Program-made: the position numbers and the translations under genes
Part shown: one piece after another, positions 8,607 to 24,384 of the stretch
Layout of the letters: each line of letters starts with the position of its first letter
Position numbering within the stretch: position 1 is the stretch's first letter
From: Escherichia phage UGJNEcP1
Strand: one strand, 5' to 3'
DNA length: 64,000 bases
Sequence record: OV754623
The notes under the pieces: model-generated
Databases searched by the model: none
Told to the model about the DNA's origin: nothing
What the model saw: only the letters and a program-made list of their open reading frames with translations

Positions 8607-8789
8607 TTATAGTGAATTCACGTAGTCAATGAGTTCTTGTTCTTTCCTGTCAAATGATTCCATCAATGCTTGATATTCTTCATCTGTTAAAGGAGCATAT
8701 TCATCGTACGCATTGGTGGCTGCTTGCTCATCCAATAGGTCATGGATAAGTTCGAACAGTTTAGTTTTCTCTTCTTTAGTCAATTTCAT
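8607..8789 (-). CDS. hypothetical protein (60 aa)
   Basis: Small acidic ORF; ATGA overlap. Confidence 0.45.
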   Translation of the reverse strand: MKLTKEEKTKLFELIHDLLDEQAATNAYDEYAPLTDEEYQALMESFDRKEQELIDYVNSL

Positions 8790-9013
8790 TTAGGTTCACC
8801 TTCTTTAACGAAATCTGGGTAAGGGTAAAATCCTGAGTAAAACCCTTCACCTTTATGATTGCTACAACCTTTGTTCGAACAGTAACACCAATAATCAAAA
8901 TCACAAGCCATTTCGTCATTGCATAAAGCAAAAACTACAGGCCATTCGCATTTTTCGCATTTAGCACCTGTAAGAATTTTTGTTTGACTCATAGCCATGT
9001 CACCTTTAAGCAA
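8786..9013 (-). CDS. Cys-rich small protein (putative zinc-binding)
   Basis: CEKCEW...CNDEMAC...CYCSNKGC pattern. Confidence 0.5.
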   Translation of the reverse strand: MLKGDMAMSQTKILTGAKCEKCEWPVVFALCNDEMACDFDYWCYCSNKGCSNHKGEGFYSGFYPYPDFVKEGEPK

Positions 9014-9216
9014 TATTCTTCTACATGTTGTTTACGGCCTTTCTTATCAATAAAGGTATATTCAACGAATGTTCCGATGTAGTCTTTATCTACGTCATGT
9101 GGACTATTAATTGGACATTTGGTACGACAAATGCGTTCCCATTGACGAATAATTACTGCCTTATTCTTTGGATCATATGGATGTGGATAATGTATATTCA
9201 TAATAACGGTTCCCAA
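8989..9216 (-). CDS. hypothetical protein (75 aa)
   Basis: ORF on coding strand. Confidence 0.45.
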   Translation of the reverse strand: MGTVIMNIHYPHPYDPKNKAVIIRQWERICRTKCPINSPHDVDKDYIGTFVEYTFIDKKGRKQHVEEYCLKVTWL

Positions 9217-9695
9217 TCAACAATCACAATTTCCAGTTTAGTGGAATACGTATCTAAAATCTCTTCGATGACGTCCCAGTTTCCACCACCGATACCTGCA
9301 CCAATTCTTGGCATATAAATTACAGGCTTTGTTATCTTATTCTTTCCGAATTCATTTAATTCTGTTATACAATTCATTAAAGCAGAGTACTCAAAATTAG
9401 GTCCGGGCTCAAACTGCGTATAAAGATTAAAGCAATAAGCTTTATGGGTCTTAAAATATTTTTCATAAACCGAATAAGTCCCGAGTTTAGACTCGTCTCC
9501 GAATTCGGTTTGAAGTTTATCGGCTTCCAGAATTTTTGGATAAGCCTTTGCTAATTGTCCTGCCACACCGGCGCCCATTGTATGAAAACAATTACACCCA
9601 TGAGCAATATTATTACCTTTAGAAAACAGGGCGACAATATCGCCCTTGATATAGTTTTTAATCACTTGCTGCAAGTCCTCTAGTATAAGAGTCAA
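9198..9695 (-). CDS. macro-domain protein (ADP-ribose binding/processing fold)
   Basis: HGCNCFHTMGAGVAGQLAKAYP and IYMPRIGAGIGGGNW resemble the two glycine-rich loops of macro domains. Confidence 0.55.
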   Translation of the reverse strand: MTLILEDLQQVIKNYIKGDIVALFSKGNNIAHGCNCFHTMGAGVAGQLAKAYPKILEADKLQTEFGDESKLGTYSVYEKYFKTHKAYCFNLYTQFEPGPNFEYSALMNCITELNEFGKNKITKPVIYMPRIGAGIGGGNWDVIEEILDTYSTKLEIVIVDWEPLL

Positions 9696-15799: not shown

Positions 15800-16025
15800 C
15801 TCGGTCCCATGATTTGGCCATTAATTCGGACATAAATTCTTCAATGCGCGTTTCTTTAGATGGACTTTCACTATTAGAGACCGCAAGTTTGTAATCTGCA
15901 ATAGGACGGAACAAATCAAGGTCCGTATTAAGGTCGTCTTTGATTTTTTCTTCTGACACATCTTTATCGTATGTGTACAGATAACTATCACATGATTCTG
16001 ATTTAATGTAAATTGCTATACTCAT
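15789..16025 (-). CDS. hypothetical acidic protein (~78 aa)
   Basis: ATGA junction with upstream gene. Confidence 0.45.
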   Translation of the reverse strand: MSIAIYIKSESCDSYLYTYDKDVSEEKIKDDLNTDLDLFRPIADYKLAVSNSESPSKETRIEEFMSELMAKSWDRDDE

Positions 16026-16513
16026 CTCAAATTCCTGCATTCGGTAATAAAACGTTCAACTTCATTATTCTTGGCCTTTATCCTGTCTTTACGTTCCTGT
16101 AAACTACTTTTAACAAGATTAATAATGATGGCGGCGGTACCGCCGCCAATGATGCCACCAACAACACTTATTATACTAGATGCTAATAAGATAGCAATAA
16201 TATCAACAAAACCGAAAGAACTCACCTTAGTACTAAAAAACCATACCGACGGTACAAATATAATCCATCCTGTTATCCATTGGCACTTATTGAAAAACTT
16301 TTCAAGCTCAGCTTGAGTTGTTCGTATTACTTCATCGATAGGTTGATATCCATTAATGTATCTGTTCACGATAATACCTGCTGGCTGGTCGATTTTAAAT
16401 TCTTGGCAAATATGTTTCACTAAATAGGATGGACAGGATGTCCAATCTACTGAATAGTATGAAATACCTTCATTGCCATCGTCTATATTAGACCAATATG
16501 TTTTGTTAATCAT
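16022..16513 (-). CDS. membrane protein with C-terminal ERFITECR motif
   Basis: Hydrophobic and Gly-rich helices (IIAILLASSIISVVGGIIGGG) plus shared C-terminal motif. Confidence 0.55.
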   Translation of the reverse strand: MINKTYWSNIDDGNEGISYYSVDWTSCPSYLVKHICQEFKIDQPAGIIVNRYINGYQPIDEVIRTTQAELEKFFNKCQWITGWIIFVPSVWFFSTKVSSFGFVDIIAILLASSIISVVGGIIGGGTAAIIINLVKSSLQERKDRIKAKNNEVERFITECRNLR

Positions 16514-17199
16514 TACCAGCCTTCCATAGGGAATTCCAGATAAACTTGGGCATTTACACGAATTTCATTGGTAATCTTTTTAACTCGGTCTGTATTACGA
16601 GATACACGTCCGAACCAACGCCATCCATTACTAATTGCACGAGAACCGGTGTGCCATGTTTGCCAATCAAACTGAAGAAGAGTACGGTCTGGAGCTTCCC
16701 ATTTCTCTAGTTCGCCTTTTTCGATTTTTTCGAGGACTTCTTTGTGCCACTGGCGATAGATAAGTTCGCCATCAGGAATCTGACTGAACTCTGCAGTTCC
16801 TGTTGCAAAATGAGTAGGACACACATCAGCGTTAACAAGACCAAGAATATGTTCAGAATGGTAACGAGGGTTGTCATAGTCAGGTTGTCCTGCAGTAATA
16901 AAGTGTTGACCAACCGGAATATCCGGGCGTGGTACATCGTCATGATGATATCCAGGAATAGCAGGGTACCAACCAGGCATCAGCATGTGGACTCGTGAAT
17001 CAAATACAACTTGATCGTTATTCCAATCATCAGGCAAGTTCATAATGAAAGAGCGAGTAATAGGACCGCCGTTATTATAAGCAAATTCTAAACTACAGTT
17101 GAAGAACATAGGCTCGTTTTTAATCTGGTCGTTTTTAATCGCATGAGCAAAACCACCTACTGCACGAGCTTGACTATTAAACACTTTAGAACTATTCAT
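16513..17199 (-). CDS. hypothetical protein (228 aa), possible H-x-D...H metal-binding enzyme
   Basis: YHHDDV and distal His residues; assignment tentative. Confidence 0.5.
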   Translation of the reverse strand: MNSSKVFNSQARAVGGFAHAIKNDQIKNEPMFFNCSLEFAYNNGGPITRSFIMNLPDDWNNDQVVFDSRVHMLMPGWYPAIPGYHHDDVPRPDIPVGQHFITAGQPDYDNPRYHSEHILGLVNADVCPTHFATGTAEFSQIPDGELIYRQWHKEVLEKIEKGELEKWEAPDRTLLQFDWQTWHTGSRAISNGWRWFGRVSRNTDRVKKITNEIRVNAQVYLEFPMEGW

Positions 17200-17200
17200 A

Positions 17201-17506
17201 TTATTTTCCTCGACATTCTTTAATGAAATTTTCTAGATTGGTAGATTCAATAGCTTTTTTACGAGCTTCTGCGTGTTCTTCTTCGGACAATTTACGTTTA
17301 TAATTGACCCAGACATTATGGTCGAAACCAGACGTGGCATATAATAACAAAGCTCCAACGAATAGCAAAAATGGTGATAAAAATATACAACCAGGAACAC
17401 CATCCATACTGTAAGCCTTTTGTAATACTGCAACAGAAAGAGTTGCGTAAAAAGGTGATGCAAGTATTGTTAAAAGACCAATTCGATTGGTTTCTGTTAA
17501 TTTCAT
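17201..17506 (-). CDS. small 2-TM membrane protein with C-terminal ENFIKECR motif
   Basis: Two hydrophobic segments then charged tail ending LENFIKECRGK. Confidence 0.55.
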   Translation of the reverse strand: MKLTETNRIGLLTILASPFYATLSVAVLQKAYSMDGVPGCIFLSPFLLFVGALLLYATSGFDHNVWVNYKRKLSEEEHAEARKKAIESTNLENFIKECRGK

Positions 17507-17845: not shown

Positions 17846-18802
17846 TTATTTGAAAGGTTTTACCATATGAAAGTTTTGTTTGAAACGCTTGACGTAATCG
17901 TCATGTCCTAAGCTTTGGTACATACTTACTACTTTGCTATAATTTTCCCAAGCGAACTCACGGAACCATCCTGATGTGATTGATGTACAGACCTTTTCAA
18001 GGGCCATCATAAAACTATCACGCGGATGGATTTTAAAGTCATTAGGAATCTGTGAACGTTCAAGAGCTAATACACAAGCTTCTTCATATACACCGGCTAA
18101 TTTAACCATTTCTGGTAATGATTCGAACTTCTCGCGTGAGGTCATGACTTCTGAGCCTTCTTTCATATAAAACTTATAAGCAGGCTGGTCAGTTAGTGCA
18201 ATGGCTTCATGGATAGTATCATGGTCATACGTATAGATGTCGTCTTTAAAGAATGCATTTTTAGTTGTGTCGAGAACCGGATGTGAGTAGTTCAGCACTT
18301 CTTTCTGGCGTTTCAGCATAATTTCAGTAAGTTCATCGTTCAGTGTAACACCTTTACCACGAAGATACTGAATATGGTTCATAGTCTTTAAAAAGAATGG
18401 ATTATTTTTCTTGAAACGATGAGACATCTTAATTGCAAGACATATCTCAGGAGTTGCCCAGTAAAACCCAGTCAAACGATCTTTAGTCAAATTTTTCTTG
18501 GTGTATTTTAAAAGGTCATAAGAAGACGTGAAATCTTCAGGAGTGAGTTCACCGACTAATTCACGGACATTAGTGATTGCCGGAACAATATATGCTTCAA
18601 AATGAGTTTCGCGTCCATTATGGAAGCATTTGAAAACTTGGACATCAGGGTTATCTTGGTGAACATATACACCCATCATTTGATTTTTGAATGCATTCCA
18701 AGAACCTTGGTCCGCAATAAAGTCCCAATCGCTATTTTTGATAGCGCTAGAATCAATAAGACCATGATAGTGAAGTGCACGAGAACCAATAACTAACATC
18801 AT
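17846..18802 (-). CDS. hypothetical protein (318 aa)
   Basis: Long ORF, no family recognised. Confidence 0.6.
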   Translation of the reverse strand: MMLVIGSRALHYHGLIDSSAIKNSDWDFIADQGSWNAFKNQMMGVYVHQDNPDVQVFKCFHNGRETHFEAYIVPAITNVRELVGELTPEDFTSSYDLLKYTKKNLTKDRLTGFYWATPEICLAIKMSHRFKKNNPFFLKTMNHIQYLRGKGVTLNDELTEIMLKRQKEVLNYSHPVLDTTKNAFFKDDIYTYDHDTIHEAIALTDQPAYKFYMKEGSEVMTSREKFESLPEMVKLAGVYEEACVLALERSQIPNDFKIHPRDSFMMALEKVCTSITSGWFREFAWENYSKVVSMYQSLGHDDYVKRFKQNFHMVKPFK

Positions 18803-18830: not shown

Positions 18831-19082
18831 TTAAATTTCACGACATGCGATATCATATTCATCCCAGAGGTCATCATGTGAAGCCTCTACCAATGGAACG
18901 ATTGCACCGTTTATGTCTTCATTATAAGGGCAAATTGTACAGTGCGCATCTTCGAATCGGATGCCTTTGTGTTCAGATTTTTTATAACGCATATCGAATA
19001 TCTTTGCAAACTTTTCACGAGTAATAGTTTTAGCAACTACTTCGGTTCCGATACTTTCGTAATAAATCATTGTGGACTCCAT
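18831..19082 (-). CDS. hypothetical protein (83 aa)
   Basis: ORF directly downstream of promoter 19090-19128. Confidence 0.5.
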   Translation of the reverse strand: MESTMIYYESIGTEVVAKTITREKFAKIFDMRYKKSEHKGIRFEDAHCTICPYNEDINGAIVPLVEASHDDLWDEYDIACREI

Positions 19083-19132: not shown

Positions 19133-19330
19133 TTAGCAAGAATAACTAGATGATACCCAGCCTTGAACAGTAATACTATTATTTGATAACGAGATTGCGT
19201 CCTGGAGATTCAGACCTGCGTTATCTTCAATCCACAATGTAACTTCTTCACGCTCTTCGGTTGCAATCTGGAACAGGTTTTCCAGAGCAGCTACTGCCGT
19301 ACGTACAGCACAATCTAATTCACGGGACAT
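19133..19330 (-). CDS. small protein, WVSSSxxC family member 3 (65 aa)
   Basis: Ends ...QGWVSSSYSC-stop; paralog of the two upstream genes. Confidence 0.55.
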   Translation of the reverse strand: MSRELDCAVRTAVAALENLFQIATEEREEVTLWIEDNAGLNLQDAISLSNNSITVQGWVSSSYSC

Positions 19331-19339
19331 ATGGTTTCC

Positions 19340-19612
19340 TTAGCAAGTGTGAGAAGATGCGACCCAACCACCAGTTTCGAGGCTCAGGTTGTAGTCATAT
19401 TGGTAAACGTCAGCCCATTCAGCATAGCCGTTTTTTGTACAACGTTCAAGATCGGCTTTAAGATGTCCGGGCGAATGATAGGTTCCACCCATACCATAAG
19501 CTGGATACAAGTCGAATGTTGTGTTTTGTTTATCAGCAATTTCTTTGGCAGCCTCAATAGCTGCATAGATTTTTGCTACAGCTTCAGCCAGTTCGGTTTG
19601 TTCTTTAGACAT
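19340..19612 (-). CDS. small protein, WVSSSxxC family member 2 (90 aa)
   Basis: Ends ...GGWVASSHTC-stop. Confidence 0.55.
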   Translation of the reverse strand: MSKEQTELAEAVAKIYAAIEAAKEIADKQNTTFDLYPAYGMGGTYHSPGHLKADLERCTKNGYAEWADVYQYDYNLSLETGGWVASSHTC

Positions 19613-19621
19613 AATGATTCC

Positions 19622-19927
19622 TTAGCACAACGCAGAAGACGAAACCCAAGCACCTTCAGTAATAACGTATCCATTACCTTCACGCTTAACATCGCCGCCA
19701 TTATTTTCAATTTCATCTTTCATCCACTGGGATACGATTTCACCCTTAGGATAATAAGTACGACCGCTACCATAATCACCTACAGAAAACGATACTGCAT
19801 ATTGGTCTGCGATCTTTGTTGCTTCTTCTTCGATACGTTCAGCTTGATTTAGAAGTTTATAAATTGCATCTGAAGCGGATTTGGCATCATTAAATTCTGG
19901 TACTTTAATTTCGATAATCTTACTCAT
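19622..19927 (-). CDS. small protein, WVSSSxxC family member 1 (101 aa)
   Basis: Ends ...GAWVSSSALC-stop; shares KIAD and YG.G.TY segments with member 2. Confidence 0.55.
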   Translation of the reverse strand: MSKIIEIKVPEFNDAKSASDAIYKLLNQAERIEEEATKIADQYAVSFSVGDYGSGRTYYPKGEIVSQWMKDEIENNGGDVKREGNGYVITEGAWVSSSALC

Positions 19928-20283
19928 TTTCTACATTCCTTAATAAAGTTTTCGATTGTTTCATTTTCACGTCTAGCTAAGAGTTCATTATAACTAATCA
20001 TTTGAGAAGCGTAAACCTTTTTATTTTTCTTGTTATGGTTTATAAAATCGTAGTAAAAATAGACTACAGTACAAAATGATGCGATGGATGCAAAGGCTTG
20101 GGTATACCGTAAGTCCTGCCATTGGTCTGTGAATCCACCGGTGTTCCCTATAAATCCTAACACAACGCCGTCAATAAGAAATCCAACTAATCCAAAGGCA
20201 AATCCCATGCCAATACTCATAATAAAAATTAAAATGTTCTCACCAAGAGAAGGCCGTACAGTTAAGAGTTGAGGCTTTTGCAT
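19924..20283 (-). CDS. membrane protein with C-terminal ENFIKECRK motif
   Basis: Multiple hydrophobic helices; ATGA overlap with downstream gene. Confidence 0.55.
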   Translation of the reverse strand: MQKPQLLTVRPSLGENILIFIMSIGMGFAFGLVGFLIDGVVLGFIGNTGGFTDQWQDLRYTQAFASIASFCTVVYFYYDFINHNKKNKKVYASQMISYNELLARRENETIENFIKECRK

Positions 20284-20657
20284 CTTATTTCCTTAACGAA
20301 TTCCATAGCTTCTTCATATTCATACTTTTTAACAGCTTCATCATACTGAGCTTGAGCTTTTGCGCACTGAACTTTCCATTCACGAACTCGAGCTCTGTGA
20401 TGACGGCCTTGGTGCCAATATCCTACCCAATTAATAGGCATTAATAAAAACGGTACAATAAGTGGTGCGACGAACATTAATGAAAACGCGGCAACAGACG
20501 ATATAACTTTATTGTAATCTAAAACAGCTCCTATAATCATAAAGATTAAAAATGCTAAAGCTAAAATAGGGCCAAATAGTACTTCATTTGGGATTAATTT
20601 ACGCTTGTATTCATATGCCCAGGGCTTACTTGGCATGTATAGGGTTGGCTTTGACAT
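20262..20657 (-). CDS. 2-TM membrane protein with related C-terminus (EFVKEIRC)
   Basis: Start placed at MSKPTLY (ATG 20655-20657) to avoid overlap with upstream gene. Confidence 0.5.
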   Translation of the reverse strand: MSKPTLYMPSKPWAYEYKRKLIPNEVLFGPILALAFLIFMIIGAVLDYNKVISSVAAFSLMFVAPLIVPFLLMPINWVGYWHQGRHHRARVREWKVQCAKAQAQYDEAVKKYEYEEAMEFVKEIRCKSLNS

Positions 20658-21249
20658 ATTCTCTACATTCCATAATAAATTGCTCAAGGATTAAATTGTT
20701 AGTGAAATTAGGACTAACAACCATGGTTTCATAAAGCGCATCAATAGCACTTAAAGCATCAACTCTTTTAAGCAAAGGCTTGCCTTCATACATAGTTTCA
20801 GAATCGACGATTAACGTAAAGTAATATTTTTTATTATCGACTAGAACTTCAGTATCGATATAAAACATGTTAGACCTCAGAAGCTTATCTCTAAAACCAT
20901 AATAATCTTCTGAACGTTCGCTGATATATTCCCATTCAGTGTTTAAACAACAAACAGACCACGTAGGAGCAACGAAATTAGTGAATCTAATATCATGATC
21001 TGCAACTAGTTTAGCAATAGCTCCGATATCATGAATCATAATACCCGGGGCTAATAAAGATTTTCTGCTATGGCTAGCCGTTTTCTCAGTAGTCTCATAA
21101 GAAGACGACCAGTACCATTTACGTCCAGTTGCAACATATCGTAATGAATCAACTAAAGACGTAGGTGGATTTACCTTATCTCGGAACTCTTCGAACATTG
21201 AGTCAATATCATTATTTTGGTTTCGCATGTTAACTCCTTTATTATCCAA
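20626..21249 (-). CDS. hypothetical soluble protein (207 aa) with C-terminal EQFIMECRE motif
   Basis: ORF; motif near C-terminus. Confidence 0.55.
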   Translation of the reverse strand: MDNKGVNMRNQNNDIDSMFEEFRDKVNPPTSLVDSLRYVATGRKWYWSSSYETTEKTASHSRKSLLAPGIMIHDIGAIAKLVADHDIRFTNFVAPTWSVCCLNTEWEYISERSEDYYGFRDKLLRSNMFYIDTEVLVDNKKYYFTLIVDSETMYEGKPLLKRVDALSAIDALYETMVVSPNFTNNLILEQFIMECREYVKANPIHAK

Positions 21250-24229: not shown

Positions 24230-24306
<77 letters not shown>

Positions 24307-24309
24307 GAT

Positions 24310-24384
24310 TGGTGACCCTGGCTGGTTTCGATCCAGCTACCTATCAGTTATGAGCTGACAGCTCTCCCATTGAGCTACAGGGCC
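24310..24384 (-). tRNA. tRNA with CAU anticodon (Ile-lysidine type or Met), CCA encoded
   Basis: Acceptor GGCCCTG/CAGGGTC, D-stem GCTC/GAGC, anticodon loop CTCATAA, T-stem GCTGG/CCAGC; 3 nt from tRNA-Arg. Confidence 0.75.

Follow-up and report, generated by a model that had tools for sequence, protein, structure and literature searches.

A phage module of small acidic proteins with a conserved C-terminal Ser-Ser-Cys tail and a predicted MenT-like nucleotidyltransferase

Three tandem genes share a C-terminal tail

We analysed a stretch of 64,000 nucleotides (nt) of Escherichia phage UGJNEcP1 (sequence record OV754623), hereafter the window, in which positions 19,133 to 19,927 hold three small tandem genes whose products share a C-terminal tail ending in Cys. 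The phage is an RB69-like Mosigvirus; over the queried stretch its identity is 100% with Escherichia phage UGJNEcP2 and 97.6% with RB69. These genes, together with a nucleotidyltransferase-like gene downstream, belong to a real, widespread and uncharacterised phage module, for which we infer a function below. The module has two components, one nucleotidyltransferase and one to six small acidic proteins. It is marked by a tail motif conserved at the protein level, by the linkage of its genes, by a predicted fold with an intact catalytic motif and by its restriction to phages. The elements of the locus that matter for the argument are the following.

19622-19927, minus strand: gene 1, 101 amino acids (aa), ending in GAWVSSSALC and then TAA; acidic, isoelectric point (pI) 4.6; corresponds to RB69ORF139c+138c; PHROG 899
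19622-19648, minus strand: tail-coding segment of gene 1, W V S S S A L C stop
19613-19621, minus strand: 9-nt in-frame spacer GGAATCATT, which with the preceding TAA makes the AAGGAA Shine-Dalgarno site of gene 2
19340-19612, minus strand: gene 2, 90 aa, ending in GGWVASSHTC and then TAA; acidic; corresponds to RB69ORF137c; PHROG 899; AYGMGGTY loop
19340-19366, minus strand: tail-coding segment of gene 2, W V A S S H T C stop
19331-19339, minus strand: 9-nt in-frame spacer GGAAACCAT, Shine-Dalgarno site for gene 3
19133-19330, minus strand: gene 3, 65 aa, ending in QGWVSSSYSC and then TAA; acidic, pI 4.05; corresponds to RB69ORF136c; PHROG 4882
19133-19159, minus strand: tail-coding segment of gene 3, W V S S S Y S C stop
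19987-20015, minus strand: sigma-70-like promoter match TTTACG-17-TATAAT upstream of gene 1 (a consensus match only)
17846-18802, minus strand: DUF7277+DUF7275 protein, 318 aa, corresponding to RB69ORF134c; predicted MenT/AbiEii/ANT-type Pol-beta nucleotidyltransferase

An earlier note on this DNA, made from the letters alone, had described three consecutive genes with these three endings, and the open reading frames (ORFs), all on the minus strand, confirm the description, each ending being followed by TAA. The note also placed a GGAA ribosome-binding site after every stop. This holds from gene 1 to gene 2 (TGC TAA GGA ATC ATT ATG) and from gene 2 to gene 3 (TGC TAA GGA AAC CAT ATG), but not after gene 3, where the TAA precedes a promoter-like stretch instead. 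All three genes lie in one common reading frame, separated by the 9-nt spacers, and each has its own ATG and Shine-Dalgarno site. The same 9-nt spacing separates family members in QL01 and at further loci in other genera. The shared frame and the recurrent spacing are consistent with translational coupling and with in-register tandem duplication. Promoter-like sites across the region were not more numerous than expected from shuffled sequence, and no terminator-like site was found on the minus strand from the promoter match to the end of the nucleotidyltransferase gene.

Profile hidden Markov models assign genes 1 and 2 to phrog_899 (1.3e-22 and 3.5e-19) and gene 3 to phrog_4882 (1.1e-36), whereas the Pfam, NCBIfam and PADLOC libraries gave no significant match for the small proteins. 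The AlphaFold2 model of the gene 1 protein (predicted local distance difference test, pLDDT, of 85) has a long helix (residues 15-43) and a small beta-sheet, with W94-S96 lying within the last strand. Gene 3 encodes a shortened paralog without the YGxG loop. Of the internal segments that the earlier note had seen in both genes 1 and 2, YG.G.TY is indeed common to the two, but KIAD is exact in gene 1 only and reads EIAD in gene 2.

Pairwise BLASTP among the three proteins gave E values of ~1e-4. Once the tail was removed, hhalign profile-profile comparison found no match between gene-3-type bodies and gene-1/2-type bodies. Most of the distinct tail-less bodies (188 of 210) nevertheless fall in one connected similarity network, in which gene 1 reaches gene 2 in two steps and gene 2 reaches gene 3 in three, each step at E ≤ 6e-5. 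The connection between genes 2 and 3 runs through the N-terminal helix and an "FDIY" strand. Since the tail-less bodies connect through intermediate homologues, we regard genes 1 to 3 as old paralogs, of which gene 3 has been shortened; the homology of its body to the other two is supported only by way of intermediates. Orthologues of each paralog are 55-66% identical across Tevenvirinae genera, whereas paralogs are ~30% identical to each other, and therefore the duplications are older than these genera and the copies are not fast-evolving. The idea of a diversifying family thus stands as regards old and distinct paralogs but not as regards rapid change, each copy being conserved as an orthologue.

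The tail is conserved as protein across a large family

The degenerate DNA pattern TGGNNNKCNTCTWSTNNNNNNTGCTAA, which describes the tail and its stop, has exactly three matches in the window, at the three stops, and none was obtained in 100 shuffles. The motif stands at the end of no further ORF of the window. In 126 different tails of the family, the stop directly after the Cys is TAA in 105, TGA in 19 and TAG in two. The Ser codons at positions -5 and -4 are drawn from both TCN and AGY, and the Cys codon is either TGC or TGT. Because both Ser codon families are used, the constraint acts on the protein and not on DNA or RNA. These data bear directly on an artefactual origin of the motif, either as one longer gene read through its stops or as a conserved DNA or RNA element. 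Such an origin might be suspected from three ORFs in the same frame with only a TAA and 9 nt between them, but it is refuted by the codon data, by the conservation of the stop, by the separate start and ribosome-binding site of each gene and by the occurrence of single-copy homologues in many phages; we give it practically no chance. The two caveats that the earlier note attached to its proposal, a frameshift or annotation artefact and a motif not conserved in homologues, were accordingly not borne out.

A word-indexed search returned close relatives that all retain the tail. A profile search, exhaustive over 1.84 billion cluster representatives (cut-off E ≤ 0.001), yielded 306 matching clusters, nearly all of 65-175 aa and with alignments reaching the last residue. 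Of the 134 representatives ending in Cys, over which the tail statistics were taken, all have W(-8), S(-5) and C(-1), and 133 have S(-4). At position -6 there is S, A or P, and Thr in a single case; G is preferred at -9 and -10. The terminal Cys is the sole Cys of the protein in 83 of these representatives, and 122 carry the YG-x-G loop. The family proteins are acidic (median pI 4.5).

Variants of the tail exist. In one subfamily the end is W-x-x-S-S-C and a W-L-N-S-S-C copy lies inside the protein, in another S-S and C are separated by three residues, and the spacing from Ser to Cys ranges overall from zero to three. Some members carry extra internal W-x-x-S-S units (nine observed, 2.2 expected). 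The earlier note had suggested a modified or conjugated C-terminus. This gains from a tail that is kept far beyond UGJNEcP1 and from a tightly linked nucleotidyltransferase gene as candidate enzyme, but the Cys is not always the last residue: eight of 198 family sequences carry one more, besides the internal copy of the subfamily just mentioned. Since a residue sometimes follows the Cys, chemistry at a free C-terminal Cys carboxylate is less likely than recognition or modification of side chains.

Three long cadherin-like or other repeat proteins (P0054, P0164 and P0190) were matched through low-complexity D-G-S-G-N-T-Y repeats and were discarded. Individual genes of the family are sometimes disrupted. 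In the RB69 reference (AY303349 69734-70040; L001 6823-7129) the 101-aa gene is split into ORF139c (71 aa) and ORF138c (33 aa), and the 90-aa gene is frameshifted in other isolates (P0012, 75 aa; P0024, 65 aa). Single paralogs are thus occasionally broken, or mis-sequenced. In Klebsiella phage EI (L004 1289-2411) an insertion of ~600 nt, carrying a 201-aa ORF on the reverse strand (1333-1938), splits the first family member, and the N-terminal part of the gene is duplicated on both flanks, which suggests a mobile element.

The tail genes are linked to a predicted nucleotidyltransferase gene

A homologue of ~320 aa of the protein encoded at 17846-18802 lies just downstream of the tail genes in QL01, Klebsiella phage EI, Pectobacterium PM2 and Myxococcus phage Mx1. 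We studied this linkage in 80 viral contigs retrieved through the 318-aa protein and scanned for ORFs in six frames. Within 3 kilobases (kb) upstream of the enzyme gene, on the same strand, 203 of 814 ORFs end in the motif; elsewhere this is the case for 12 of 6102. At least one tail gene was found in that interval in 74 of the 80 loci. The copy number, which the earlier note had recommended comparing among related phages, is one to six per locus. Four other loci have family members a few kb away on the opposite strand, and at one (L078) a W-x-x-S-S-C tail gene lies upstream and had been missed by the ORF filter. Such W-x-x-S-S-C variants occur in four loci that a first, stricter pattern had missed. 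When the search started instead from three divergent small proteins (P0077, P0147 and P0166), the contigs retrieved carry a DUF7275 gene just downstream.

Clustering of the neighbours in the 80 loci showed that the tail family is the only gene family to accompany the ~320-aa gene across lineages. The linkage spans T4-like phages, Myxococcus phage Mx1, Pseudomonas Otagovirus, Stenotrophomonas Mendera and jumbo contigs of ~370 kb. The enzyme family is present in 733 of 50,697 deposited phage genomes, including T4-like coliphages of the therapeutic type, phages of Klebsiella, Enterobacter, Acinetobacter, Aeromonas and Pseudomonas, and jumbo phages. Only five contigs from 185,579 bacterial and archaeal species genomes contain it, all of them in metagenome-assembled bins, and four of these have tail genes upstream. 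The module is effectively restricted to phages.

A tail that acts independently of the enzyme, as a reactive-thiol or metal-binding cap or as a motif docking onto host proteins, would leave only co-regulation or a shared pathway to account for the linkage. Several features fit such a tail: the model gives it partial order, with a strand and then a terminal turn, it holds the only Cys of the protein in most members, and its S-x-x-C geometry resembles (T/S)-x-x-C thiolate motifs. An acidic linker with a conserved C-terminal tip is also a common docking design, as at the C-terminus of SSB. However, the linkage, immediately upstream and on the same strand, holds in very distant lineages in which all other neighbours have changed. 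Because it persists where every other neighbour differs, we favour a direct functional tie and consider an enzyme-independent tail quite unlikely.

The 318-aa protein matches Pfam DUF7277 and DUF7275 with 260.9 and 96.5 bits (cut-off 27), and all 30 aligned relatives match both. It carries the Pol-beta signature G-S...D-x-D...E, and residues G6, S7, D25, D27 and E69 are invariant among the 30 relatives (47-74% identity). The helical C-terminal domain (DUF7275) has many further invariant polar residues. With high confidence, the predicted fold is that of a Pol-beta nucleotidyltransferase closest to MenT1; Foldseek agrees, and the similarity extends to the solved MenT structures. Pfam AbiEii/DUF1814 was not matched at E ≤ 1 by any of the 30 members, and no sequence match was found among the chains of the PDB. 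Because the fold matches without a Pfam AbiEii or PDB sequence match, we assign the protein to a new family in the MenT/AbiEii/ANT branch. It is apparently competent for catalysis.

A possible enzyme with several tagged partners

We consider it rather probable that the enzyme has the small proteins as direct functional partners. As likely as not, in our judgement, is the overall explanation in which duplicated small proteins work with the nucleotidyltransferase and the tail is the element recognised and the probable substrate. Under this explanation, anciently duplicated small acidic phage proteins would cooperate with the MenT/AbiEii-fold enzyme encoded just downstream. The constant C-terminal tail, W-x-[S/A/P]-S-S-x(0-3)-C, would be the element that the enzyme recognises, and the variable bodies would give each paralog a separate role. 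The two partners would interact physically, with the tail as point of contact. The tail would enter the active site, where the invariant Ser pair, and possibly the Cys, would receive a nucleotide or a nucleotide-derived group, and a single enzyme would tag several proteins bearing a common handle.

Of the roles that can be proposed for the tail, substrate seems the most likely and pseudo-substrate inhibitor a possible one. A role as substrate or tag is favoured because one enzyme faces several old, divergent paralogs with a constant tail, because the chemically reactive residues are the invariant ones, and because the Pol-beta fold is that of the classic protein nucleotidylyltransferases. Covalent nucleotidylylation of the tail is nonetheless a tentative proposal, which we hold at somewhat less than even. 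A virus-specific tagging system, in which the MenT-fold enzyme places a nucleotide, an oligonucleotide or a derived group covalently on Ser or Cys of a portable eight-residue C-terminal handle that as many as six different small proteins of a phage would share, is possible but on the unlikely side. As to what the modified proteins might do afterwards, an accessory role in host takeover or in counter-defence is our guess.

Some observations weigh against this explanation. One of the 80 loci (L028) truly lacks tail genes although the enzyme gene is present. Two short contigs found from the small proteins extend only 1.3-1.7 kb further downstream and show no enzyme gene there. Within 4 kb, tail genes are also missing around four distant relatives of the enzyme whose N-terminal domain is shortened (from actinophages, Vibrio R10Z and an Alteromonas phage). 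The AlphaFold2 model puts the Trp in a beta-strand, so that the tail would be partly ordered and not a free peptide. Finally, the closest structural relatives of the enzyme act on 3' ends of transfer RNA (tRNA), as do MenT1, MenT3 and MenT4, or on small molecules, as do ANT(2'') and LnuA, and not on proteins.

The last point leads to the main rival, an antitoxin-like inhibitor role. The small proteins would then be regulators that block a MenT-like enzyme with the tail as a pseudo-substrate plug, and would time or restrain an enzyme modifying tRNA 3' ends or some other host target, as MenA1 does with MenT1. The closest structural neighbours of the enzyme being tRNA-modifying toxins speaks for it. 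However, there are one to six old and distinct paralogs per phage instead of one cognate inhibitor, the small proteins are not similar in sequence or fold to MenA1 or any other PDB entry, and the invariant Ser-Ser and Cys suggest chemistry over mere docking. The module is also essentially absent from bacterial genomes, where toxin-antitoxin systems have their home. Substrates or adaptors are preferred over a single inhibitor because up to six old paralogs per phage combine very divergent bodies with a constant tail, and because some members bear extra internal W-x-x-S-S units. An inhibitor role thus seems unlikely to us, if less so than the other alternatives.

The arrangement of several small tandem genes with a C-terminal Ser/Cys segment next to a putative modifying enzyme also recalls ribosomally synthesised and post-translationally modified peptides (RiPPs). 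A tail Ser would be activated and dehydrated to dehydroalanine and the Cys would add to it, giving a ring of the lanthionine or aminovinyl-cysteine (AviCys) type. The chemistry is appealing, and most members have the S-x-x-C-stop spacing that would suit it. Yet Pfam found no dehydratase, cyclase, LanD-type flavoprotein, protease or exporter domain in 14 neighbouring proteins, and no such accessory family is conserved near the module in the 80 loci. A constant "core" joined to a variable "leader" inverts the pattern of typical RiPPs, folded bodies are predicted (pLDDT 85), the Ser-to-Cys spacing varies from zero to three and a residue follows the Cys in some members. To our knowledge, Ser dehydration driven by a nucleotidyltransferase has no precedent. 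We regard RiPP-like precursors as highly improbable.

Yersinia phage phiR1-RT provides experimental data on homologues: its g126, g127 and g128 belong to the family, as verified by translation, and its g125 is the enzyme gene. When cloned in E. coli, g126, g127 and g128 were non-toxic (relative colony-forming units of 0.94, 0.69 and 1.08; threshold 0.4), in a screen that covered these three genes without g125 (PMC6893735). The same phage bears on a role of the tail as capsid-targeting signal, by which the proteins would be packaged and ejected like the internal proteins (IP) of T4. Small, acidic and diverse accessory proteins in a plastic region of T4-like genomes might suit such a role, and the phiR1-RT genes for IpII and IpIII lie a few kb away. 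However, the three homologues, which were kept there as hypothetical non-structural proteins, were not among the 78 virion proteins detected by liquid chromatography-tandem mass spectrometry in this one phage (PMC6893735), the targeting sequence of T4 is N-terminal, and the linkage to the enzyme would be left unexplained. The chance of a capsid signal is, we think, very slim.

Both components of the module are common in phages, yet they are annotated as hypothetical. A near-invariant tail beside a nucleotidyltransferase makes for a sharp hypothesis, namely that one defined peptide changes in mass. Should the tail be modified, viruses would possess a protein-modification system of a new kind and with it a portable tag; in the case of tagging, the proteins would be phage effectors or carriers of a new class, armed after translation. 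If the proteins are instead inhibitors, lytic phages would carry a toxin-antitoxin-like nucleotidyltransferase pair. Either way, PHROG 899/4882 and DUF7275/DUF7277 acquire a functional context.

Neighbouring genes

Two further genes of the window lie close to the module.

18831-19082, minus strand: 83-aa ORF, RB69ORF135c-like, PHROG 3723, between the triplet and the enzyme gene, with an HCTICP (C-x-x-C) motif
16513-17199, minus strand: 228-aa RB69ORF132c-like protein, without Pfam match, with a His/Asp-rich PGYHHDDVPRP segment

The 83-aa ORF is lineage-specific (12 of the 80 loci) and probably stands outside the core of the module. In 23 T4-like loci the RB69ORF132c-like gene is kept, at a distance of ~1.4 kb downstream of the enzyme gene.

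A second C-terminal motif, F-I-x-E-C-R, flanks the cluster on the minus strand (16022-16513, 17201-17506, 19924-20283, 20262-20687 and 20626-21249). It is carried by e.2-, e.3-, e.4- and e.5-like proteins and an RB69ORF133c-like protein, with the endings RFITECRNLR, NFIKECRGK, NFIKECRK, EFVKEIRCKSLNS and QFIMECREYVKANPIHAK, and is also found in QL01, in Klebsiella phage EI and in L028. In RB69, e.2, e.3 and e.4 are annotated as predicted membrane proteins. Several Mosigvirus records (e.g., L002 4463-4858, vB_Eco_F27) label a gene of this region as "sulfurtransferase"; it encodes the e.4-like membrane protein and is not part of the tail cluster. The label is probably spurious, because Pfam gave no match for the e.4-like copy of the window (20262-20687).

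The window has only two tRNA genes, tRNA-Arg(tct) at 24230-24306 and tRNA-Met(cat) at 24310-24384. In L028, a T4-like contig of 165.5 kb, seven tRNA genes (8615-9567) lie directly upstream of the nucleotidyltransferase gene, in the place of the tail genes. Linkage to tRNA genes was rejected as a general feature: among 47 loci checked, tRNA genes are near the enzyme in the T4-like loci and three others, and most of the diverse loci have none. In an RB69-like contig (L007 4381-4474), ARAGORN reported a 94-nt "tRNA-Stop (anticodon tta)". In phiR1-RT, g136 and g137 (L105 15674-16277) lie among tRNA genes and encode small transmembrane proteins that were reported to be toxic to E. coli (PMC6893735). 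They are ~5 kb from the module and unrelated to it.

Comparison with known systems

The window proteins belong to PHROG 899/4882 and to Pfam DUF7275/DUF7277, entries that carry no function. In the literature we found no paper on the tail, the linkage or the enzyme, and no record that ties PHROG 899/4882 to DUF7275/DUF7277.

The closest pairs by enzyme fold are MenA1-MenT1 and AbiEi-AbiEii. MenA1 is a 68-aa helical protein, encoded upstream, that blocks the active site of MenT1 (PMC10435456). In contrast with both pairs, the phage enzyme has no Pfam AbiEii match and possesses an extra, highly conserved helical domain (DUF7275), and the module resides in lytic phages instead of bacterial chromosomes. 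The phage small proteins bear no relation to MenA1, be it by sequence or by fold, come as one to six paralogs and end in the invariant W-x-S-S-S-x-x-C tail; they thus show neither the homology or fold similarity nor the single cognate copy of a MenA1-type antitoxin.

Epidermin-type lanthipeptide precursors have an S-x-x-C-COOH arrangement, which gives AviCys. Like the phage proteins they are small, their C-terminal Cys is preceded by a Ser at position -4, and in some cases there are several precursor genes. The phage locus differs in that no LanB/C/M/D, protease or transporter is encoded nearby, the tail is constant and not hypervariable, the bodies are folded and the spacing varies.

Enzymes of the Pol-beta fold that nucleotidylylate proteins include those of the pairs GlnD/PII, GlnE/GS (glutamine synthetase), MntA/HepT and DrrA/Rab1, and MntA adds a short oligo-AMP (adenosine monophosphate) to its partner. 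The likeness to these pairs lies in a nucleotidyltransferase genetically paired with a protein that bears an invariant hydroxyl residue. CitX and MdcG place a nucleotide-derived group, via a phosphodiester, on a conserved Ser of the ~100-aa acidic proteins CitD and MdcC. Here too an enzyme of the nucleotidyltransferase superfamily works with a small acidic Ser-bearing protein, but no sequence relationship was detected, the Ser is N-terminal (Ser14), each system has one carrier and its role is metabolic, not viral. The phage module therefore resembles known pairs of a nucleotidyltransferase and a small protein, and differs from them by its tail, by the multiplicity of its partners and by its restriction to viruses.

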